Source: a virus (Duplodnaviria > Heunggongvirae > Uroviricota > Caudoviricetes). Taken from it: a stretch of 29,156 nt of DNA. The DNA lies in IMG/VR virus record IMGVR_UViG_2734482789_000006; one strand, given 5' to 3'. The notes below the pieces were generated by a model. The model saw only the letters and a list, made by a program, of their open reading frames with translations, was not told the origin of the DNA and made no database searches. This document shows, one piece after another, positions 1 to 14,880 of this stretch (the stretch's first letter is position 1; each line of letters begins with the position of its first letter). The position numbers and the translations under genes are program-made.

Positions 1-669
1 CTATATGCGTTTGATTACCACTAGATTCGACATAATCTTTGGCTCTTTCATCACTGGTACAGCCAGTTGAGGGGTAAATGATACATTGAACGGTAAGGAG
101 GGGCACCCGATGCCTTGTTCACGACTTCTTCTAATCATCCAATTCTCAGCTAGCCAACAAAAATTCCCATAAAATTTTATGTTAACACTCCGTCGCGCAG
201 TCAAGTATGGTTCAAATTCCTTAGCCAAAAAAATCACTGTAGAACCAAATACTTTGTACAGGAACATCTCATCATACAAACCATTTCTAATAGCATTTGC
301 ACATCGTTCCCATTCATTAAAAACTGTCATTAATGCTCGAGCTTCTTTCGTTTGCCTTACCTCATCACGCCCCCACATTTCAAGGGGAATTATTTTCCTA
401 AGCTTCAAAATGTTTAGCATCGTTTGCCAAGCATCTTCAACTTTATCGCTCCGCTTATATGATGATTCAAAATCAAGTGAGTTTTTTTCACGAGAGGTTT
501 GTCTCTGCTTTCCTATGCTTATAATCGCTATGGCCGCAGCAATGAGAGCAGCGATGATTGTACTATAAAATGTAGGATTGTCTTTCCAAAGGCGTGCCAA
601 CGTGCACAAGATTGTATGTAAGAAATCTTGATTCATTTCACTTAATCCATAAACAAAAGAGGTGGGCAT
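1..669 (-). CDS. Accessory membrane protein of unknown function (222 aa, one predicted transmembrane helix); candidate prophage moron, possibly superinfection exclusion or defence
   Basis: Complete ORF whose TAG stop is window bases 1-3. The protein has a hydrophobic stretch (TFYSTIIAALIAAAIAIISIG) followed by a charged soluble domain. The region is visibly AT-rich compared with the phage body. A GAGGTGGG Shine-Dalgarno-like sequence lies about 7 nt upstream of the ATG at 667-669. I recognise no family; function is inferred from position and composition only. Confidence 0.55.
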   Translation of the reverse strand: MPTSFVYGLSEMNQDFLHTILCTLARLWKDNPTFYSTIIAALIAAAIAIISIGKQRQTSREKNSLDFESSYKRSDKVEDAWQTMLNILKLRKIIPLEMWGRDEVRQTKEARALMTVFNEWERCANAIRNGLYDEMFLYKVFGSTVIFLAKEFEPYLTARRSVNIKFYGNFCWLAENWMIRRSREQGIGCPSLPFNVSFTPQLAVPVMKEPKIMSNLVVIKRI

Positions 670-681
670 ACGCCCACCTCT
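658..681 (-). promoter_or_regulatory. Perfect 10-bp stem / 4-nt loop hairpin enclosing the SD and start codon of the 1..669 gene
   Basis: Plus strand AGAGGTGGGC-ATAC-GCCCACCTCT at 658-681. On the minus-strand RNA the 5' arm is the SD-like AGAGGUGGG, the AUG sits at the loop/stem junction, and the 3' arm (CCCACCUCU) is codons 2-4. A TTTGTTTAT run follows on the minus strand, so it could also act as a terminator for upstream transcripts. Confidence 0.45.
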
Positions 682-1325
682 GAAAATCTATAAAATGAGT
701 AACTATTTACTTGGAAGTAAAGACACCCCAATCCTCTTCGCGATAGATTTTTTTCATAGTTCATACCTCTCTGGTTGTCTCATTTTTTGGCTAAAAACCT
801 TTGGACATACTTTATACACATTCGACAAAAGAACTACAAGTAAGTTCATCCGATTTCAGTTTCTTCCATCATAATCATTCAACTATAAAGCAATGTTATC
901 AACTTCTTATGTGTTACCTACATAATAGCAAAACAATAGCAAAAAGTAGAATCGTCACATGTAAAACCATGTAAACATAATATTTTCAAATGGATACATA
1001 ACACACACTGTGCTCCCTCCTCCTAAGCAGACTGAAAAAAAATGAAATTTCTTTCAATCATTTCAGTTTCTCTCCTCCGCCAAGCCGCCAGTAATGGTGT
1101 GGTCTAGCACTCAGTTTTGTAGAAAAATAAAACTGAAAAATTTTTATGATCCAAAAACCGCAGGCGGGTGCGGTGTAGCGCCGTTTTTGTCTGCGAAAGA
1201 TTTATTTTGTCGGTGCATCGCTGCGCCAGCGCAGCGCCATGCGCACGATCTTTTATATGTGTTGCATTGGGTTAATTTGTTGTTTTAAGTGCTGAGAACG
1301 CGTTCTGCTGCGTCTGAGGATGGGT

Positions 1326-1350
1326 ATAAAAAAGCCCGCATTATGCGGGC
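1326..1350 (-). terminator. Intrinsic terminator closing the tail operon
   Basis: GCCCGCA-TTA-TGCGGGC hairpin at 1334-1350, followed on the minus strand by a T run (plus-strand A run at 1328-1333), 13 nt after the TGA stop of the 1363..3066 gene. Confidence 0.6.
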
Positions 1351-1362
1351 GTGTGGTCATGG

Positions 1363-3066
1363 TCAGGCAATTATATTCTGATACTTGCTCCGGGTCTGCC
1401 CGGCTTTCGTCGCCGTCTGGGTGAACGCGTCGGCATTAGTTGGCGTCCCAACGGTGGGGTGCGAATGGCTCGCGCATTGCTGTGCCAGTTCTGCCAGTAA
1501 ATCAATGGTATCCAACATCATGGTCAGGGCGTTGATACTCTCACTGCCAATATGGACAGTTGCCCCCATGACCTGCTGACCGCCAGCGGCCACTGATTTA
1601 CGCAGTGCGGCAATTTTCTCTGTCAGGCTTTCGCCAACCTCCACGGCTACAGCACCGCCCACTTTAGTGGACTGCTGTCCTGCTATGTCCGTTTCTTCGT
1701 TTCCTTCAATACTGGCCAGCCTGTTACCTTTCACCGCCTGGCTATAATCACCGGCACTTACCTGCTGGATGGCTCCGGCCAGCAATGTGGTGGTTCCCAG
1801 TACCGTGGTTTTATCCGTGGCTTTCACCGTGGTTTCACGGCTGACCAGTTCGCGCTGTTCCGTATCGGCTTTTACGGTTCGCGCCATCGATGTTTCACTG
1901 ATGGTCTGATCGGTCTGTCTTACCCAGTCTCCTGCCTGAGTCACCCGCTGGGAAACTTCTTCCCGCTGCTGCTGCAATTGCTCACCGGGTTTAACGTCCG
2001 GCAGGCTGGTACCATCCGGCAGCGTCTGCCTGATAAAGGGTTTATCCGGTCTGCCTCCCGTGAATGCAACCTCAACCAGCGTCCCTTCTGGCGGAAACTG
2101 AAACATACCTGAATCATTCCCGGCCATTGGCACCGGCAGCTGCACCGCTGAGTAAACAGGCGTCTGATTGTCCGGGTTTCCGTCTGCGTCAAGCAGCTGA
2201 ACGTCCACGGCGTAACGTGGCCGGAAGGGATCGGCAAAATTACCGCTTTTTACCGGCTCTGAATGCGCCACGACTCTGGCCATCTTTGGCAAATGAAGCC
2301 CGGATGCCAGTTCCGGGTAATGGCTTTCAATCTGCCGTTGTGCTGGTGTTTTCTGCAAAGGTTTACCCGTTGCGCGGTTTCTCGGCGTCCATGTGATCGC
2401 CATCGTGTCATTAGTCAGGTGAACTTTAGTCACGCGTTCACCGTTCATCTCCACCCCTGGCCGCATAGTCTGGATCATTGGTAATGTCACAGAGTTACCA
2501 CCAGCAGCCCCCTGGCTGAACTCTGAAGGGATTTCTACGGAACGACCGGCAAACAATGATTTTTCTGCGCCTCCGACGTAAAGCGAACCATCAGGCAACT
2601 GGTACCAGATGTAATCCTGGATACTGAACGCCCTGCCCAGATTGTTCAGCAACTGATAGCCGGTACCGTTATGGGTAAAATGTGGGATAGGGGTATCGCT
2701 GTACTCTGCATCAGGCACACTGACCGTGATCCCGCTGTTTTCTTCCAGCCAGCTGGCAACCTCGCGTAAAGTTGGATGTTGAAACGAACATGGCCACATC
2801 CTTTCAAACACACCTACCAGCTCACGAATGAACAGACGCTGAAAACCGTTTTCAGCGGGCTGCGATCGCTCCACATACCCCGTAAACCAGCGCAAAAGCA
2901 GATCGGTATACCCCACATCCAGCCGCACCAGTTTTCCGGTGTAATCGGTTGTTGTCTCTGCGGTGATGAAGCCCCGGCCGCAGCTGTTCAGCTCCAGTAC
3001 CAGACTAGCATCCACGAGGTGAACTTCATCCGTTGAAAGGTAAAGGCGTTTTACTGGTTTCATCAT
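1363..3066 (-). CDS. Large tail-operon protein, function unassigned (possibly baseplate hub/spike-like)
   Basis: 567-aa ORF, last gene of the tail operon, start overlapping the stop of the upstream gene. The C-terminal third is rich in Thr/Gln/Gly/Ala, as in spike or fibre proteins. GC content resembles the phage body. No motif I can name with confidence. Confidence 0.45.
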   Translation of the reverse strand: MMKPVKRLYLSTDEVHLVDASLVLELNSCGRGFITAETTTDYTGKLVRLDVGYTDLLLRWFTGYVERSQPAENGFQRLFIRELVGVFERMWPCSFQHPTLREVASWLEENSGITVSVPDAEYSDTPIPHFTHNGTGYQLLNNLGRAFSIQDYIWYQLPDGSLYVGGAEKSLFAGRSVEIPSEFSQGAAGGNSVTLPMIQTMRPGVEMNGERVTKVHLTNDTMAITWTPRNRATGKPLQKTPAQRQIESHYPELASGLHLPKMARVVAHSEPVKSGNFADPFRPRYAVDVQLLDADGNPDNQTPVYSAVQLPVPMAGNDSGMFQFPPEGTLVEVAFTGGRPDKPFIRQTLPDGTSLPDVKPGEQLQQQREEVSQRVTQAGDWVRQTDQTISETSMARTVKADTEQRELVSRETTVKATDKTTVLGTTTLLAGAIQQVSAGDYSQAVKGNRLASIEGNEETDIAGQQSTKVGGAVAVEVGESLTEKIAALRKSVAAGGQQVMGATVHIGSESINALTMMLDTIDLLAELAQQCASHSHPTVGTPTNADAFTQTATKAGQTRSKYQNIIA

Positions 3067-3611
3067 TAACCCAAAGCATCATTGACGGGCTTCAGCACCT
3101 TGCGTTCAAACCACGTCAGTTTTTCTTCATCCTCTCCGGCAGACTGGCCACCGGACTGTACCGCACTACCGGCAGTCTGTTTTTTTGCGGTCGTCTTACC
3201 TGTTGCCCTGGCCTCTCGCTTTTCCTGCACGCTGATATGTTCCGCCAGTGTGAATGTCACCAGCCAGGACATTTTCCCGTCCTGCTGGGGCGCATCCAGC
3301 ATTCCGCTGAACGTTGCTTCACGAAAATTAACAGCACGGGCAACTTCATGCGCCACGCGGTACTTCTGACGATTACCACTGGCATCGGTAGCACTGGCCA
3401 GCTCAAAAATACGCTTCAGTATTTCAGGCTGTTTAAAAGGTATTTCACCGCTGATCCGCAGTTCCTTTCCCTTTGCTCCCTGCTCTGATTTTGTTGTGGC
3501 GCTGGTCTGGCCGGACTGATCTTTATCCTGAAACTGCTGTGAAACGGTCACCCGCATGTTTTTCAGCTGGATGGCCTCGCCATTAAGCGCCAGTGTCGGG
3601 ATCGAAGTCAT
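3066..3611 (-). CDS. Hypothetical tail-operon protein (181 aa)
   Basis: ATG at 3609-3611 with an AGGGAA SD-like sequence upstream; overlaps the upstream gene by 29 nt and the downstream gene start by 1 nt. No recognisable domain. Confidence 0.45.
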   Translation of the reverse strand: MTSIPTLALNGEAIQLKNMRVTVSQQFQDKDQSGQTSATTKSEQGAKGKELRISGEIPFKQPEILKRIFELASATDASGNRQKYRVAHEVARAVNFREATFSGMLDAPQQDGKMSWLVTFTLAEHISVQEKREARATGKTTAKKQTAGSAVQSGGQSAGEDEEKLTWFERKVLKPVNDALG

Positions 3612-4308
3612 GAATCATTCCCTTTATTCCATCAAGATTATCACCAACCAGCATCATGGCTGCGGTGTAAACGGCAGACTGCTGCGGAATGTCCTTCATC
3701 AGTTCCAGTAACGTGGTGCCGGTGTCTCCGCTGGCAGTAAAAACCCACGCTCTGGCACTTTTTCCCTGTAAATCATTCAGGCCGCTGACCACGTCACTGA
3801 TAAGCTGGTCACGCAGCTGCGTGAACTCGCCCAGCTGTTTTTTCAGCCCTTCGATATCAAACCCGGCCCCCGCCGCCTTTTGTGCCTGGCTGATTGCCGC
3901 AGCAGATAAAGCAGCCCTGCTGGTTGGTACAGACAGCGGTATGGGCGCAGGTAACGCAGCGGCGGTTTTCGCAGGGATCTGCATCTTTTCAATAGCCAGC
4001 GCTGCGGCAGATTGCGCCAGCCGTTTGACCTGCGTGAATGCCGGGGCGGGGAATATCCCGACCAGGTTATTCAGGCTGACCATAAAGTTTTCCTGCGTCT
4101 GTCCGGTGACCATCATAATCACCACGTCCGCATTCCCTCCAGTTCCGGCCAAGCGTTCAGCAAGATAGCGAACGGCATTAACCGGACTGAGATATGCCCC
4201 GTTCGCTGTCTGCTGTCCCAGCCCATAAATCCACGGATGCGCAGGGACGATCGAACAGTTCAGCGCAGCAACAGAATCCGTAAAGGCCAGACGTGCTTCA
4301 CGCCACAT
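3583..4308 (-). CDS. Hypothetical tail-operon protein (about 241 aa)
   Basis: The ORF runs to 4344, but the ATG at 4306-4308 (MWREARL...) has a GGAGGTG SD 9 nt upstream and overlaps the tail-fibre-assembly stop by 11 nt, so I take that as the start. Function unknown. Confidence 0.45.
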   Translation of the reverse strand: MWREARLAFTDSVAALNCSIVPAHPWIYGLGQQTANGAYLSPVNAVRYLAERLAGTGGNADVVIMMVTGQTQENFMVSLNNLVGIFPAPAFTQVKRLAQSAAALAIEKMQIPAKTAAALPAPIPLSVPTSRAALSAAAISQAQKAAGAGFDIEGLKKQLGEFTQLRDQLISDVVSGLNDLQGKSARAWVFTASGDTGTTLLELMKDIPQQSAVYTAAMMLVGDNLDGIKGMIHDFDPDTGA

Positions 4309-4885
4309 TTCCAGGCACCTCCGGCCACACAATTTCCGGCGCATCTTCCGGTTGAATACGATTCAGTAAAACGCGGTATTTTTTCCATGCGGTAAGCAGC
4401 AGTGCTTCTTCTTCGGTTGCCATGTCTAAATCAACGGCATCCTGCAATGTGGCAATGGCGTCATTGGCCTGTTTAAGCAGGCTTTTCTTTTCGACGTCTG
4501 CCTCGCTGACTAATACAATTCGCATGGCCTCCGCATCATCCACCCACGCCTTACCATTCCATTTTTGCCAGGCATTAGCCGGTGCTAACGTGGTTGTCCC
4601 TTCCGGGTACCCCCCTGGCTCGGTGATCACCACTTCATTACCGTTTTCTGTATCAAACACCACCTCACCACGATGATCCTCACGGGAAATCCATCTTTGC
4701 TTCTCTGAATCAAAAATTGCCACAAACCCCACTTTGATTACCGGTGGTTTTATTGTTGTGCAGTTGGCTGGCAGTCCAGTATGCGCAGGAATAAAAGCAT
4801 CACCCGAACCAATAAATTCATTCGTGTCGGAACGCAGGTTATAAACAGTAACTGTTTGATCGGTTTCACTCATTTTAAAAGTCAT
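4298..4885 (-). CDS. Tail fibre assembly chaperone
   Basis: 195-aa protein immediately after the fibre gene with a 1-nt stop/start overlap; size and position match tail fibre assembly proteins of P2 gpG type. Confidence 0.7.
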   Translation of the reverse strand: MTFKMSETDQTVTVYNLRSDTNEFIGSGDAFIPAHTGLPANCTTIKPPVIKVGFVAIFDSEKQRWISREDHRGEVVFDTENGNEVVITEPGGYPEGTTTLAPANAWQKWNGKAWVDDAEAMRIVLVSEADVEKKSLLKQANDAIATLQDAVDLDMATEEEALLLTAWKKYRVLLNRIQPEDAPEIVWPEVPGNVA

Positions 4886-7063: not shown

Positions 7064-8288
7064 TATTCACCGTCAGTGATTTCAGACGCGGCACGCTCAG
7101 TTCACTGGTAATGTCTCCCAGCGAAAATGTCAGTGATTCCGTCTGCGCAAAGGTTTTATGAATTTCCCGCCCCAGTTGCGAAAAGGAAAACCGTGAATAT
7201 GGCCACGTCTTTCTGACGTCATAATCAGCATTTTCACGAAAGGCACAGCGGATCATGTTTTCAATGCCGCCCTTCAGCGTTTTCACTTCTTCGTCACTGA
7301 AGTTGTTCAGATTTTTGACATAGACCGTGACGACCAGATTGTGAAGCGTTTCCGGCATGGGATAGCACTGCATATCATCACCATGCCCGTGGTGTCCCTG
7401 CGTGTTGATATAGTCATTCACTGCATCCACGAAAGGCGCTGATGCCACCCCACTGTCCAGTAATAAAAAGGCGTTGGCTGTTCCTGGCCCCCTCGGTGCT
7501 TCATGCTCAAAGAAAATCCGATCGATACTCAACCCGGCAACACTGGCGATCATTGAGCGATAAACCGCATCAGTGTGGTAATTCCCCACCAGATTGAACT
7601 GATTGCGGCAACGCTCGCGCAGTTCATCATCACTTTCCTCGTCAGCCCCCGGCACGGTCAGCCAGTTTTCCTCACTGGCCACATGGCTGATACCACTGAC
7701 CGCCACCGGCAGAATGCGGTAATATCCGGGCGCAAGGTTATACGCACCCCCGGTGCCGGTGGCTTTCACCGGTAGTAATGCGCTGGCCGCACCAGAAGCG
7801 ATCACCACATCCTCAGTGGTCGCCAGCTCATAAACTCGCCCGTTAATGCGTTCTGTCTGGATAACCGTCCCGGCTTTCACCGTCACAACGGCCTTTGCAT
7901 CTTCTTTGAAGAAGCGGATCACCCCCTGTGCAGCGCTCGCCGGTTTTGCCGTGACGTTCACCGCCCAGGCCAGCAAACGCAACATGCTCCCGCTGGCTGT
8001 GGCCACAAACATATTGGCCAGCACGGTTAACACCAGAACGTCTTTAAGCCACATCACCGGGGCGGTCACAATGGCGGTGATTAATCGCCAGAACGGTGAC
8101 ATTCGGGATGTATTGGTGATAATTCCCTCATCCGCTGCAATCGCATTGAAGCGTTCCCGCACTTCGGCTTCCGTTACCGGCATACCGCTGTCCTTCACCA
8201 CTTCTTCAAAATCAACCTGCGGTTTTTCCGTCATAAATCCACCTGCGCAGAGATCCCGCCAAAATCGTATGTACTCGCGGTTACCCAC
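7050..8288 (-). CDS. Baseplate J-like protein
   Basis: 412-aa ORF (probable start MTEKPQ at about 8237) between a small baseplate protein and the gpI-like gene; size and order match the baseplate wedge protein (gpJ / gp6 family). Confidence 0.6.
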   Translation of the reverse strand: MGNREYIRFWRDLCAGGFMTEKPQVDFEEVVKDSGMPVTEAEVRERFNAIAADEGIITNTSRMSPFWRLITAIVTAPVMWLKDVLVLTVLANMFVATASGSMLRLLAWAVNVTAKPASAAQGVIRFFKEDAKAVVTVKAGTVIQTERINGRVYELATTEDVVIASGAASALLPVKATGTGGAYNLAPGYYRILPVAVSGISHVASEENWLTVPGADEESDDELRERCRNQFNLVGNYHTDAVYRSMIASVAGLSIDRIFFEHEAPRGPGTANAFLLLDSGVASAPFVDAVNDYINTQGHHGHGDDMQCYPMPETLHNLVVTVYVKNLNNFSDEEVKTLKGGIENMIRCAFRENADYDVRKTWPYSRFSFSQLGREIHKTFAQTESLTFSLGDITSELSVPRLKSLTVNIENE

Positions 8289-8560
8289 AGCCGCTTCTGA
8301 CTTTCTTCACTGATTTCCACCGTACCCGGCACAATGCGTTCATCATCTTCAATCAGTAATTCCATGCTGGTAAAAATATCCGCTCTCATTGTCGGGCTAC
8401 GTTCGGCAATTAATTCCGTCGCTAACCCACTTTCAATAATGGAATGAATAATGTCCTGCCCGATACTTTTTCGGTTATTACATAATTCAGGTTCATTACC
8501 GGTATTCAGAACAAAGTCACCGCCCTGAATCAGCAAATCGATATAAAGAACATCACTCAT
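8231..8560 (-). CDS. Small tail/baseplate protein (gpW/gp25-like position)
   Basis: About 109 aa from MSDVLYIDL, starting directly after the tape-measure stop and overlapping the J-like gene start. Assignment is by position only. Confidence 0.4.
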   Translation of the reverse strand: MSDVLYIDLLIQGGDFVLNTGNEPELCNNRKSIGQDIIHSIIESGLATELIAERSPTMRADIFTSMELLIEDDERIVPGTVEISEESQKRLWVTASTYDFGGISAQVDL

Positions 8561-10524
8561 GCGCCAAGCTCCTGCCATTCCATAAGCTGGGATGGAGAAA
8601 GTGCTTCTTTGGTATGGAAATGCACTTCACCAATTTTCCGGCTGTTATCGGTTACGGATTTACTGTTGCTGCTGATTGTTTTGCTGATACCACCTTTATC
8701 CACACCTTTTAAATCACCACCCGTTGACAGTGTATTTCCGGTTAATGGCTGCGTGGTTTCACTGACCAGTGAAATATCCACGCCGGGAATTTTATTCAGT
8801 TTCTGAACAATCCAGTTCCACGACTTAAGAAATCCCCCTTTGATTGACTTCCAGACATTATCAAACAGCGACATAATGCCGGAGGCCATCCCCTTTAATG
8901 CTTCAGACGGTGAAAATCCTGTCAGCAAAGAAATAAAGCTGTTCCATCCTTCACTGATATATTGCCAGGCTGAAACAAAGATCCCCGCCAGCCATTTCAC
9001 CACGGCGGCACATGTCTGGAAGGCTCCAGTATTCATCACCGCTGCTTTTATTGTGTCCCAGTGCTTAACCAGCAGATAACAACCGGCAACCAGTAGCGCA
9101 ATGGCACCAATCACAAGCAGGATCGGCCAGCTCATCAGGTTGATACCAATTCCGGCCATTATTGCGGCCATGCGTACCGCCAGTAACGCACCGCGCAAAA
9201 ACTTCAGCGTGGTATTCCAGGCGATTACCGCCATTTGCGCCAGCCAGACAGTGACAGTGTAGATTTTCGTAACCGCCGTTAACGCCACCCAGATCCCGCG
9301 CAATCCCATCATGATGAATCTGGATACCCCCATCACGATATTGGCCACCGCACCCACGGCGGCAAAGCTCAGGAGTGCCATCGACGCATAACCAATCACA
9401 CGGGCAATGTTAGGAAATAACTGCATCCAGCGGGCAAAGGTCTGCCCCATATCGGCCAGGCGATTCAGAACCGGATACAGCACCGGGATCAGCGTCAGCC
9501 CGATCACGGTCTGAATGGCTTTCAGGATTTGCACAAAGCGATCCCACGGCTTAACCATTTTTTGTGCCATTTCCTGGGTACGCTTCAGACCGTCCGCGCC
9601 GCCCAGTTCGGTGATGTTCCGCTGAAGTAACGCGACATTGCCGTAAAGCTGTTTAACCACTGCCGAACTGTCACCAAAGGCTGCATCCAGTTCCGCCTGG
9701 GCTTTCAGGTTCCCTTCAAGGCTTTTGCCATATTTGCCCTGCAACTTGATCAGCATTTCAGGCATGGACAGCATTTTGCCGGTGGAGTCAGTAAAGGACA
9801 GCCCCAGCTTTTTAGCGCCATCAATCGCACCGGTCATAAACCCTTCATAGGCGCTGCTGGCTTCCGTTCCCAGTGTCCGCTGAAGTTGCCCCAGAACGGC
9901 CAGCTGTTCATCCAGTCCCACGCCGTAGTTAGTCCCTACGCCGCGCGCACCTTCCATCAAATCCTTGATAGTGGCCATTTCTGTGCCAAAGGTTTTGCGC
10001 ATATAAACCATCTTGCCCGCCAGCTGCTCGGCAAATTCAACCTTGCCCAGTCTGGCGGCATCGGCGGAAAAGTTACCGAACATCTGCCCCATAAATTCCG
10101 CCGTGTCCGCCGCTGTGGACTTGAGCGCAAAAGCCAGGGTATTGGCGATTTTCGTCACCTTCGGCAGTTCATTACCCGTCAGTCCGGCAATGGAAGCGTT
10201 AATATTTTCCGTGGATTTAACGAACTCCACCGCGCTGGCACCATAGGTTGTACTAAAGCGCAAGGCATCACGCTGAACGGTCTTAAGCGCGGAATCATCA
10301 ATCCCTTTTGCGGCGGCATCATTCAGCGCGTCATACATTTCAATTGCTGGTGATAACGCGCCCTTGATCGCCATCCCGATACCTGCCAGCGCCACTGCAC
10401 CGCCGCCAATCTGCATAAAGGCCGCTTTTGATTTTTCCGCAAAGCCGGTGACGTTACCCTGCACCTGTTTTAACGGGCGGGATAATTTATCAATCAGGCT
10501 TAATGTAAAATCTAATTGTTTCAT
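8557..10524 (-). CDS. Tail tape measure protein
   Basis: 655 aa; helical N-terminal half, several hydrophobic segments in the C-terminal half; directly downstream of the chaperone frameshift cassette. Confidence 0.85.
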   Translation of the reverse strand: MKQLDFTLSLIDKLSRPLKQVQGNVTGFAEKSKAAFMQIGGGAVALAGIGMAIKGALSPAIEMYDALNDAAAKGIDDSALKTVQRDALRFSTTYGASAVEFVKSTENINASIAGLTGNELPKVTKIANTLAFALKSTAADTAEFMGQMFGNFSADAARLGKVEFAEQLAGKMVYMRKTFGTEMATIKDLMEGARGVGTNYGVGLDEQLAVLGQLQRTLGTEASSAYEGFMTGAIDGAKKLGLSFTDSTGKMLSMPEMLIKLQGKYGKSLEGNLKAQAELDAAFGDSSAVVKQLYGNVALLQRNITELGGADGLKRTQEMAQKMVKPWDRFVQILKAIQTVIGLTLIPVLYPVLNRLADMGQTFARWMQLFPNIARVIGYASMALLSFAAVGAVANIVMGVSRFIMMGLRGIWVALTAVTKIYTVTVWLAQMAVIAWNTTLKFLRGALLAVRMAAIMAGIGINLMSWPILLVIGAIALLVAGCYLLVKHWDTIKAAVMNTGAFQTCAAVVKWLAGIFVSAWQYISEGWNSFISLLTGFSPSEALKGMASGIMSLFDNVWKSIKGGFLKSWNWIVQKLNKIPGVDISLVSETTQPLTGNTLSTGGDLKGVDKGGISKTISSNSKSVTDNSRKIGEVHFHTKEALSPSQLMEWQELGA

Positions 10525-13673: not shown

Positions 13674-14377
13674 GCTTTCCCCTTAATATCCTGCGCTTTA
13701 ACGTCCCAGCCAAAGCCGATGGCCTGAAGCTGACGCGCCAGCGCCTTGTCAAATTCATCATCATTCATGCCCAGAAACACACGGGCAGGAAGATCCACTG
13801 TCCAGCTGGTTTTCACGGCTTTACCGCTGAGTTTTCGAATCAGCAGCCCCGCCTGGCTGTACGGCATCGTTTTGGTGATTTCGCCCAGTGTGGGCTTTTT
13901 CCATCTCTTACCGGTTTTCACCCGGTATCCCAGCGCCCGTAATTTTTTGGCCTGGGCAGGCGTCGCCATTTTCCCGGCCTCTGCCTTCCGTGGCTGATTA
14001 CTGCGGCTGACCTTTACGCGCATTCCGTTTTGTTGCGCGTAACCCACCGTTCCGGCTGGTACCGGCGTTTCCCCGTTCCGGTATCCGCCGCCCTGTAAAT
14101 AGATCCGCACAGTCTGAATTTCTGGCATTTCACGGATATGCAGCAGCTTTGGCAGGTTGCGCAGCATCTTCCCTTTGCGTTTTGTCTTACGTCCCGGCCA
14201 CTTCTGGCCATCCGGAGATTCCTGATTGCGCACATGTCGTTTTGCCGCAGCAATCACGCCATATTTGGCCAGACGCCAGATCAGACGCTGTCGTTTTCTC
14301 GGCGGCAGCTCCATGCTGGCCAGTGCCTTGCGCAATTCGGCCAGCTGTTTTTTATTCAGCTCGCCACCGGCAATCAT
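13670..14377 (-). CDS. Virion morphogenesis / tail completion protein (putative)
   Basis: 235 aa with a strongly basic central region, between the head-completion region and the sheath gene; coupled to both neighbours. Confidence 0.45.
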   Translation of the reverse strand: MIAGGELNKKQLAELRKALASMELPPRKRQRLIWRLAKYGVIAAAKRHVRNQESPDGQKWPGRKTKRKGKMLRNLPKLLHIREMPEIQTVRIYLQGGGYRNGETPVPAGTVGYAQQNGMRVKVSRSNQPRKAEAGKMATPAQAKKLRALGYRVKTGKRWKKPTLGEITKTMPYSQAGLLIRKLSGKAVKTSWTVDLPARVFLGMNDDEFDKALARQLQAIGFGWDVKAQDIKGKA

Positions 14378-14880
14378 TCGCTATCCCCCACCGGCGCCCC
14401 GGCCTCATCCACGCTGTAAATACTGGCGGTCAGTGCCGTCCAGATTTCAGGCTCAACCAGTGACCAGCGCTCACCCCGCCACGGAATAGCCCCGTTTTCG
14501 TCCTGCCTGATCACCAGTTCTTCCACCATCGGAACAGTCAGCACCACAGTGGCCACTTCCTCATCCTCCACCGACACATCCCAGTCCGGTTCGGCTTCAC
14601 TCAGCCCCACTTCATCCAGTAGTTCCCTGTCAGCATCATCCAGCCATGCCGCCAGTAAGGACATAAGCAACTGCGGCGGGCACAGGCGATACGGGAAACG
14701 CTCCCAGCTCAGAACCGCGTCATATCGGATCACCGCCTGGCGATATTGTCCCAGCCCGTAATCCTTCGCCGCAGGAATGAACTTCATCTCATCCAGCACA
14801 CTGTCAAATGACTTCATTGCGCGGGGCGGGACGTTCTCTTTAAAAAATGCGGTCAGGCTCTGGATCTGCGTCTGGCTCAT
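14374..14880 (-). CDS. Head-tail joining / tail completion protein (putative)
   Basis: 168-aa acidic protein, ATGA overlap with the gpL-like stop; assigned by position only. Confidence 0.4.
   Translation of the reverse strand: MSQTQIQSLTAFFKENVPPRAMKSFDSVLDEMKFIPAAKDYGLGQYRQAVIRYDAVLSWERFPYRLCPPQLLMSLLAAWLDDADRELLDEVGLSEAEPDWDVSVEDEEVATVVLTVPMVEELVIRQDENGAIPWRGERWSLVEPEIWTALTASIYSVDEAGAPVGDSE

Follow-up and report, generated by a model that had tools for sequence, protein, structure and literature searches.

Three genes closing the late tail operon of an HP1-type phage, one of them a fused baseplate hub and spike by homology

We analysed a window of 29,156 nucleotides of phage DNA, in which three overlapping minus-strand open reading frames, encoding proteins of 241, 181 and 567 amino acids (g241, g181 and g567), are located 3' of the tail-fibre assembly gene. 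The three are regular virion genes rather than cargo. Very probably they form the conserved distal end of an HP1-type contractile-tail module, to which they supply the central baseplate parts that are otherwise missing there. Their assignment as hub and spike genes of the HP1 type is already in the literature. A first-pass annotation, made from the sequence alone, had called the trio unassigned, and this describes public annotation well, where the label is mostly 'hypothetical protein'. It does not describe the literature, in which HP1 orf35 had already been given as a gpD-gpV fusion (PMC10612066 Table S1, footnote d).

The layout reported in that annotation, with three overlapping genes following the tail-fibre assembly gene and a terminator closing the operon, was found again at the positions in Table 1. 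The product of the gene 5' of the trio matched the tail-fibre assembly family Caudo_TAP (E 4.7e-35). The stop of this gene and the ATG of g241 overlap by 11 nt, and a GGAGG precedes the ATG by 8 nt. An alternative start of g241 at 4344 would give a protein of 253 aa, whereas the homologues have 241 aa. The overlap between g181 and g241 is 29 nt and that between g567 and g181 is 1 nt (TAATG). At the 5' end of g567 there are two adjacent ATGs, the second of which is the start in most homologues. The terminator, a strong one with a stem of 7 bp including 6 GC pairs, follows 13 nt past the g567 stop, and an annotated terminator (T39) is found at the equivalent site in K139. The GC content is 0.51-0.55 over the trio, as in the remaining late region, and falls to 0.35-0.39 at 1-1000; the earlier view that composition and coupling mark these genes as operon members was thus correct. 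The overlapping stops and starts, together with the single terminator, suggest that the trio and the wedge and fibre genes are expressed together, at fixed ratios, from the late transcript.

Table 1. Positions of the three genes, the domains assigned to g567 and the closing terminator in the window
Feature	Coordinates	Strand	Description
g241	3583..4308	(-)	HP1 orf33 homologue; 241 aa, 25.3 kDa, pI 5.35
g181	3066..3611	(-)	HP1 orf34 homologue; 181 aa, 19.8 kDa, pI 9.3
g567	1363..3066	(-)	HP1 orf35 homologue; 567 aa, 61.7 kDa
Hub-like N-terminal domain of g567	2383..3042	(-)	about aa 9-228; phrog_196 match and collinear with ACA1 gp48
Putative OB-fold of gpV/gp5/VgrG type in g567	2032..2145	(-)	aa 308-345; Phage_base_V
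Triple-stranded beta-helix of g567	1543..1890	(-)	aa 393-508; T4 gp5 C-terminal beta-helix match
HxH motif at g567 spike tip	1459..1467	(-)	H534-S-H536
Intrinsic terminator, end of late tail operon	1334..1350	(-)	GC-rich hairpin GCCCGCATAATGCGGGC then TTTTTTAT

The trio was found to be homologous to orf33-orf34-orf35 of Haemophilus phage HP1, based on tblastn and synteny. Its place and order were constant in all HP1-subgroup Peduoviridae phages examined, which belong to at least eight genera, and it occupies the same place in HP1, HP2, F108, K139/Kappa, SI7/SW3, ESSI-2, vB_YenM_324, ESSI2_ev015 and ACA1. The same families in the same order follow the tail-fibre assembly gene in HP1, HP2, F108, K139 (orf37-39), ESSI-2 and ESSI2_ev015 (gp03-gp01), and in the HP1-type relatives, as here, they close the late operon and are followed by a terminator. 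A synteny comparison had been proposed to see whether the trio is constant or swapped, and it is constant. The HP1 proteins share 25-42% identity with those of the trio, the K139-type orf33 proteins are longer than g241 at the N-terminus by about 55-70 aa, and members of the orf34 family occur in 75 phage records, spread over 12 host genera. At the DNA level the window shares 96-97% identity with four plaque-forming Escherichia phages (ESSI2_ev015, ev129, ev239 and ev040); the ESSI2_ev phages are infectious coliphages isolated from viromes (PMC6969025). Comparison of the trio family alignments with this phage's own tube, sheath, DUF2590, J, I, R, S and tape-measure proteins (hhalign) gave no match, and therefore no internal paralogy of the trio is seen. 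Against individual baseplate proteins of P2 and Mu, the three alignments likewise gave no significant match.

By homology, g567 joins baseplate hub and central spike in a single chain. It matched phrog_2258 'baseplate protein' over residues 2-567 of 567 (E 2.4e-275), and the alignment was collinear with the homologues from HP1, K139, SI7, ESSI-2 and Yersinia. At residues 26-164 it was matched by phrog_196 'baseplate hub' (E 1.6e-6), which differs from the PHROGs of P2 gpD (phrog_52) and Mu gp44 (phrog_177). None of the 17 family members matched the Phage_GPD Pfam. With the family alignment, hhalign gave a weak match of the N-terminal domain to Mu gp44 (E 0.007, probability 5.5%) and a non-significant one to P2 gpD (probability 0.2%). 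We call this domain hub-like, as its putative hub role leans on the one PHROG match and on the published HHpred link of ACA1 gp48 to P2 gpD (P10312), at 10% identity (PMC10612066).

The remaining part of g567 carries clear spike features. Phage_base_V matched 16 of the 17 family members (best E 4.5e-5) and g567 itself with E 9.6e-5 and 23.1 bits, just below the gathering cut-off of 23.8, and residues 292-480 of the g567 profile aligned to the OB and beta-prism region of VgrG. The C-terminal beta-helix of T4 gp5 matched with a profile E of 3.1e-9 (5.6e-7 with the single sequence), and Gp5_trimer_C and Gp5_C matched 10/17 and 6/17 members, respectively. The needle would be of the trimeric type, and g567 is predicted to be a trimer. 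At the tip, H534 and H536 were invariant in all 17 aligned homologues, and the Pfam 'GpV Apex motif' matched one family member (E 0.006). In P2 gpV and phi92 gp138 the iron ion at the tip is coordinated by HxH motifs, and the motif of g567 is a candidate metal-binding apex.

The order of hub-like domain, putative OB fold and beta-helix in one chain is also that of the T6SS protein VgrG, whose chains align weakly to the OB and prism regions of g567. In comparison to T4 gp5/gp27 and VgrG, g567 has no lysozyme domain, and its hub part, of about 230 aa, falls well short of theirs. The VgrG model TIGR01646 gave 17.2 bits, far under its cut-off of 121.8, and TIGR03361 gave 15.7 bits against a cut-off of 186. 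By analogy, g567 is taken to work like VgrG without belonging to that family. Fused spikes of the Afp8/Pvc8 type are further comparators.

Hub and spike are encoded by two genes in Pseudoalteromonas phage ACA1 and by one gene in the phage analysed here. ACA1 gp46, gp47, gp48 and gp49 match g241, g181, and the N- and C-terminal halves of g567, respectively. Positions 9-228 of g567 aligned to gp48 (gpD-like) with E 3.3e-45 and positions 238-565 to gp49 (gpV-like, cell-puncturing device) with E 3.5e-36. For g181 and gp47 the E value was 4.6e-33, and gp46 is a distant orf33 homologue (E 2.9e-17 to the g241 family profile). ACA1 differs further in having a diversity-generating retroelement module inserted upstream. 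Mass spectrometry of ACA1 virions detected the orf33 homologue with 2 spectra (6% coverage), the gpD-like protein with 5 and the gpV-like protein with 2, whereas the orf34 homologue gp47 was not detected (PMC10612066 Table S2). Calculated from the same table, the spectra per kDa of the detected trio homologues were similar to those seen for gpW and gpJ of the baseplate. Virion proteomics had been proposed as a check, and through the ACA1 homologues it gave a positive answer for g241 and both halves of g567 and a negative one for g181.

g181 matched the curated Pfam family PF25759 (HP1_ORF34, 'baseplate complex protein') over residues 6-181 with E 1.3e-54 and 185 bits, compared to a cut-off of 27, and all 20 aligned family members matched as well. 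It also matched phrog_1398 (E 1.2e-74). The N-terminal part of the protein, about 130 aa long, is folded; a low-complexity linker then leads to a conserved segment at the C-terminus, KLTWFERKVLKPVNDALG. In the family alignment the core and this C-terminal segment were conserved, the segment being absent from K139 orf38. g181 is probably a tube initiator or hub adaptor. The ACA1 homologue gp47 has been linked to P2 gpU by HHpred at 15% identity, a link marked 'uncertain' by the authors (PMC10612066 Table S1). We did not reproduce it: hhalign of the g181 family against P2 gpU gave a probability of 0.1%, tblastn gave nothing, and none of the 20 family members matched PF06995 (gpU), even at E 10. 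Against PDB sequences, the best match of the g181 profile was a chance ribosomal one (E 2.3). The suggested profile searches against hub, spike and gpU families gave matches for the g567 spike and one, to phrog_196, for the hub, and nothing significant for gpU/PF06995 or, with hhalign, for P2 gpD.

g241 matched phrog_1677 (E 3.8e-75), which also takes in HP1 orf33 and K139 orf37, and it has no recognisable family outside HP1-type phages. An AF2 model built on 57 diverse sequences gave an alpha/beta fold with a pLDDT of 89.5; with only 42 sequences, all sharing at least 65% identity, the model had reached a pLDDT of 54 and could not be used. The predicted fold had no match among solved and viral structures, and was unlike the solved baseplate folds of gp25, gp27, gp48/54, gp53, gp6/7, LysM and TssE/F/G/K. 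We also considered g241 as the tube initiator and rejected this, because the alpha/beta model with its long helices lacks a tube-like beta-sandwich. g241 is taken to be a protein of low copy number in the virion or associated with the baseplate, and restricted to the HP1 subgroup.

In PHROG and Pfam scans, none of the other large open reading frames of the late region was identified as a hub, spike or tube-initiator gene. Searching the window with P2 X/U/D/V/W and Mu gp43-46 (tblastn) gave nothing below E 0.1, and a LysM 'glue' protein gpX is absent from this phage. The first-pass statement that no hub or spike is identifiable elsewhere in the tail module stands for the whole window. Its proposal that the trio might be relocated hub and spike components was right about the components, as seen from the g567 domains, the PF25759 match of g181, the constant position and the ACA1 virions. 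The word 'relocated' is misleading because the order is that of the native HP1-type tail module. The tail terminator, which the first-pass annotation had listed among the possibly relocated components, is present as a gpR-type gene at 14374..14880, seen in the PHROG and Pfam scans, and the expression 'tail terminator (gpU)' mixed lambda gpU with P2 gpU.

The baseplate of P2 is made up of gpV, gpD, gpU, gpX, gpW, gpJ/gpI and gpH, with gpU being the tube initiator and not a terminator (preprint 10.64898/2026.09.14.750843). The functional set required at the core of a minimal contractile baseplate is shared with P2, where it consists of hub (gpD), spike (gpV), tube initiator (gpU) and LysM glue (gpX). 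The g567 spike, with its putative OB fold and HxH tip, resembles P2 gpV, and no sequence similarity between P2 and the trio was detectable with tblastn or hhalign. P2 hub and spike are separate proteins, whereas they are fused in g567, and the central baseplate genes of P2 lie in two separate operons, whereas the trio is placed after G. P2 has gpX, of which no equivalent with LysM is found here, and g241 has no P2 counterpart.

It is hardly credible that the three genes are cargo or a moron, for instance a defence or lysogenic-conversion module, riding on late transcription in the slot of P2 Z/fun. Such a reading could draw on the position directly after the tail-fibre assembly gene, the site of the P2 accessory locus, and on g241, which lacks relatives of a recognisable family beyond these phages. 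However, content and order are invariant among the relatives, the genes share the strand and the GC content of the operon and overlap each other, and none of the three proteins matched any PADLOC family at E <=0.01. The clear spike domains of g567, the detection of homologues in ACA1 virions and the lack of an alternative hub or spike in the window also argue against it. P2 fun(Z) itself lies on the opposite strand, past the V-operon terminator. The truly variable slot here is 3' of the terminator, and it is this region, not the trio, that has the features of an accessory locus of the Z/fun type, namely variability among relatives, a transcription unit of its own and atypical composition. The cargo option of the first-pass annotation was given up on the basis of the PADLOC result, the invariance and the GC content, which is not atypical.

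Within the baseplate reading, the roles of the two smaller proteins can be assigned differently. g181 could be a glue or adaptor like the LysM protein gpX, leaving tube initiation to the hub domain of g567 or to the end of the tape measure. We regard this as quite unlikely, although g181 has no sequence or profile link to gpU, PF06995 or this phage's own tube protein, is basic with a long low-complexity linker, and has the one homologue not detected in ACA1 virions. Published HHpred placed P2 gpU nearest to its homologue, and g181 (181 aa, compared to 159 aa for gpU) directly precedes the hub gene, mirroring the U-D order of P2, a small gene and then the hub gene. Its conserved C-terminal segment recalls the wedge-contacting C-terminal helix of gpU, and g241, with no tube-like fold, does not offer itself for the role. 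g241 alone might be a morphogenetic factor for folding or assembly of the hub-spike trimer or the fibre, mostly missing from finished virions. This would agree with the very weak virion signal of its homologue, with g241 being acidic and soluble and having an alpha/beta fold that no solved baseplate protein shares, and with the position of its gene directly 3' of the fibre assembly gene. It is nevertheless unlikely, since the spectra per kDa of the homologue (0.09) equal those of gpW (0.08), gpJ (0.05) and gpV (0.06), which are bona fide baseplate proteins. Only tentatively do we propose that g241 is a genuine baseplate component found in the HP1 subgroup only, with a fold new to solved contractile injection systems, placed at the hub-wedge interface that gpX fills in P2. 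If so, the HP1-type baseplate would be a distinct architectural solution and not merely a diverged P2 baseplate.

With the trio as the centre of the baseplate, the N-terminal hub domain of g567 would sit beneath the tube, and its OB fold, gp5-like trimeric beta-helix and HxH tip would pierce the outer membrane upon sheath contraction. g181 would take the part of P2 gpU, as a small protein forming a ring between tube and hub, and its conserved C-terminal segment on the flexible linker may reach the wedge. g241 may replace the glue protein gpX.

The gain is mainly one for annotation, as a gap is closed and no new question is raised, and little changes for biology at large. What interest remains is limited: among solved baseplates there is none of the HP1 type, and orf33/g241, conserved and detected in virions, has a confidently predicted fold that, as modelled, is without a known relative or P2 counterpart. 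No trio protein scored above the cut-off in NCBIfam, and the basis of the label 'structural protein' in a Yersinia phage record was not traced in the literature. In RefSeq, two or all three of the genes are labelled 'hypothetical protein' in E. coli prophages. In some phage records the orf34 homologue is mislabelled as 'adenine glycosylase' or 'nucleoid DNA-binding protein'.

The three genes g241, g181 and g567 (the trio, named by protein length in amino acids) close the tail operon of a prophage of about 28 kb that belongs to the HP1 subgroup of the Peduoviridae, the relatives of P2. The head and replication module is of P2 type. The tail module is of HP1 type and comprises gpR/gpS-like completion genes, DUF2586 sheath, HP1_Orf24 tube, lysis genes, chaperone, tape measure, DUF2590, Baseplate_J, Tail_P2_I, fibre and fibre assembly gene. 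Over the trio region the DNA was 96-97% identical to that of the Escherichia phages ESSI2_ev015, ev129, ev239 and ev040, temperate coliphages that were isolated in infectious form from viromes of the infant gut (PMC6969025), and the phage is close kin of these already sequenced isolates. In size, and in the location of its gene between those for the tape measure and the J-like protein, the DUF2590 protein corresponds to the sheath initiator gpW, to which HHpred assigned it (PMC10612066 Table S1); in Pfam the family is still entered as "unknown function".

Features of the tail region and the adjoining slot
Feature	Coordinates	Strand	Details
g241	4308..3583	minus	241 aa
g181	3611..3066	minus	181 aa
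g567	3066..1363	minus	567 aa
DUF4760 gene	1..669	minus	222 aa; Pfam E 3.8e-25
Terminator-like hairpin, strong	658..681	minus	10-bp stem, 7 GC pairs
DUF2590 protein	8231..8578	minus	115 aa
Tail terminator, gpR type	14374..14880

An 11-nt overlap links the g241 start, preceded by GGAGG, to the stop of the fibre assembly gene, g181 overlaps g241 by 29 nt, and g181 and g567 are joined by a common TAATG. The g567 stop is followed after 13 nt by a GC-rich hairpin and its T-run. The GC content of the trio was 0.51-0.55, the same as in the remaining late region, and dropped to 0.35-0.39 past this terminator. The first-pass annotation, which had described three coupled, operon-like genes with a closing terminator and no separate hub or spike elsewhere, was accurate in these respects: PHROG and Pfam scans and tblastn with P2 and Mu baseplate proteins found no further hub, spike or tube-initiator gene in the window. 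The trio is real and was described correctly, but it is ordinary. At the g567 start two ATGs adjoin (window 3061-3066), and MKP is the N-terminus of most homologues; the second ATG may be the real start (566 aa), which would turn the stop/start overlap with g181 into a 2-nt gap.

Judged by sequence, the trio proteins are homologues of HP1 orf33, orf34 and orf35. g241 matched phrog_1677 and aligned with HP1/HP2 orf33 at 24-25% identity (E 3e-12), g181 is a member of Pfam PF25759, "Bacteriophage HP1 ORF34 baseplate complex protein" (185 bits against a cut-off of 27), and g567 matched phrog_2258, "baseplate protein", over its full length. Synteny comparison showed the trio in unchanged order between the fibre assembly gene and the operon end in HP1, HP2, Pasteurella F108, Vibrio K139 and Kappa, Salmonella SI7 and SW3, Cronobacter ESSI-2, Yersinia vB_YenM_324, ESSI2_ev015 and Pseudoalteromonas ACA1. 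The orf34 family extended over 75 phage records, which covered a dozen host genera. Of 5426 complete E. coli genomes, 51 (~1%) carried the trio, always as a single chromosomal copy and mostly annotated as "hypothetical protein"; an earlier survey found ESSI-2-like prophages to be very rare in E. coli (PMC6969025). In both E. coli chromosomes looked at (loci L089 and L090) the prophage adjoins mntR-ybiR.

The C-terminal two-thirds of g567 is predicted to be the central spike. It contains a probable OB fold of the gpV/gp5/VgrG type (Phage_base_V at 23.1 bits, slightly below the cut-off, with matches in 16 of 17 family members), a triple-stranded beta-helix matching the T4 gp5 needle (E 3e-9), and an HxH pair close to the C-terminus that was invariant in all 17 aligned homologues. 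The N-terminal ~230 residues significantly matched phrog_196, "baseplate hub" (E 1.6e-6), which differs from the PHROGs of P2 gpD and of Mu gp44; hhalign against these two single sequences gave no link. Comparison with ACA1 was decisive for the predicted function, as positions 9-228 of the family profile correspond to gp48 (E 3.3e-45) and positions 238-565 to gp49 (E 3.5e-36). These are separate genes, linked by HHpred to P2 gpD and to P2 gpV (PDB 3QR8), respectively, and both products were present in ACA1 virions by mass spectrometry (PMC10612066). The matches point to g567 as hub and spike fused in one protein. VgrG has a like build, yet g567 lies outside that family (TIGR01646, 17 bits against a cut-off of 121.8). 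That the trio is structural, and that gpD and gpV are fused, had already been published (PMC10612066). The hub-spike homologue Orf44 of F108 (locus L004, 5205-6386) has just 393 aa, and in the alignment its whole beta-helix region was absent with an HSH motif still at the end; it could be a true short spike, or else the record may contain a frameshift or a deletion.

We infer that g181 is the tube initiator because of its curated Pfam name and its size, because its gene immediately precedes that of the hub, mirroring the U-D order of P2, and because such a protein is needed and the window holds no other candidate. Its ACA1 homologue gp47 (E 4.6e-33) was closest to the P2 gpU family by HHpred at 15% identity, a homology its authors called uncertain, and was not detected in virions (PMC10612066). 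This link was not reproduced for g181: PF06995 (gpU) matched none of 20 family members, hhalign against gpU gave no signal, and PDB sequences gave no match. The alignment showed a conserved core of ~130 residues, a basic low-complexity linker and a conserved C-terminal segment. In P2 the C-terminal helix of gpU contacts the wedge, as seen by cryo-EM (preprint 10.64898/2026.09.14.750843), and the conserved segment could be analogous to it. The 181-aa family already has a curated Pfam entry. Several public phage records (L002, 8698-9243; PV94, SMHB1, 1.202.O, phi3, ValB1MD-2) label g181 homologues "adenine glycosylase", "nucleoid DNA-binding protein" or "DNA-binding protein", which are probably propagated misannotations.

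The least understood of the trio is g241, and the role and fold of this orf33-type protein are the sole remaining point of some interest. Its family is small, as 1.8 billion proteins yielded 107 representatives at 50% clustering, and g241 had no match in Pfam, NCBIfam or PDB sequences; as to its baseplate type, neither small protein (g241, g181) has a relative among the solved structures searched. An AlphaFold2 model from a diverse alignment was confident (pLDDT 89.5, pTM 0.76) and showed a mixed beta-sheet with packed helices and a long helical hairpin at 128-182. On this predicted fold, hub, spike, tube initiator, sheath initiator and LysM protein were therefore ruled out. P2 has no g241 counterpart (PMC10612066), and the window phage has none of gpX, the P2 LysM glue protein. 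In ACA1 virions, 2 spectra came from the homologue gp46 (E 2.9e-17, hhalign probability 96.8%), whose spectra per kDa lay within the gpW/gpJ/gpV range (PMC10612066). Most likely g241 is a low-copy baseplate-associated protein confined to the HP1 subgroup; the main alternative is an assembly factor carried along in virions merely as traces. Vibrio-type orf33 members, such as K139 orf37 (locus L003, 8782-9675) and representatives P0414 and P0424-P0428, are longer (285-300 aa) through an N-terminal extension of 55-70 residues, which is absent from the 241-aa proteins of enterobacterial origin.

The first-pass annotation had offered two readings of the trio, relocated hub, spike or terminator components or a cargo system riding on late transcription. 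The hub and spike part of the first is supported by g567. A tail terminator is not the missing part, as the window carries one of gpR type, and P2 gpU, named there as terminator, is a tube initiator (preprint 10.64898/2026.09.14.750843). For cargo we found no support, since none of the three proteins matched a PADLOC defence family, the composition and strand are those of the operon, and the trio was constant among relatives and never swapped. It is the slot downstream of the terminator, rather than the trio, that looks like a variable accessory (moron) locus similar to Z/fun of P2. Here this low-GC slot (window 1-1300) holds the DUF4760 gene, whose product matched nothing in PADLOC. Its content differs in other E. 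coli strains with the prophage beside mntR/ybiR, of which one has a serine acetyltransferase there and another a DUF6338 protein together with further hypothetical proteins. The terminator-like hairpin in this slot overlaps the start codon region of the DUF4760 gene.
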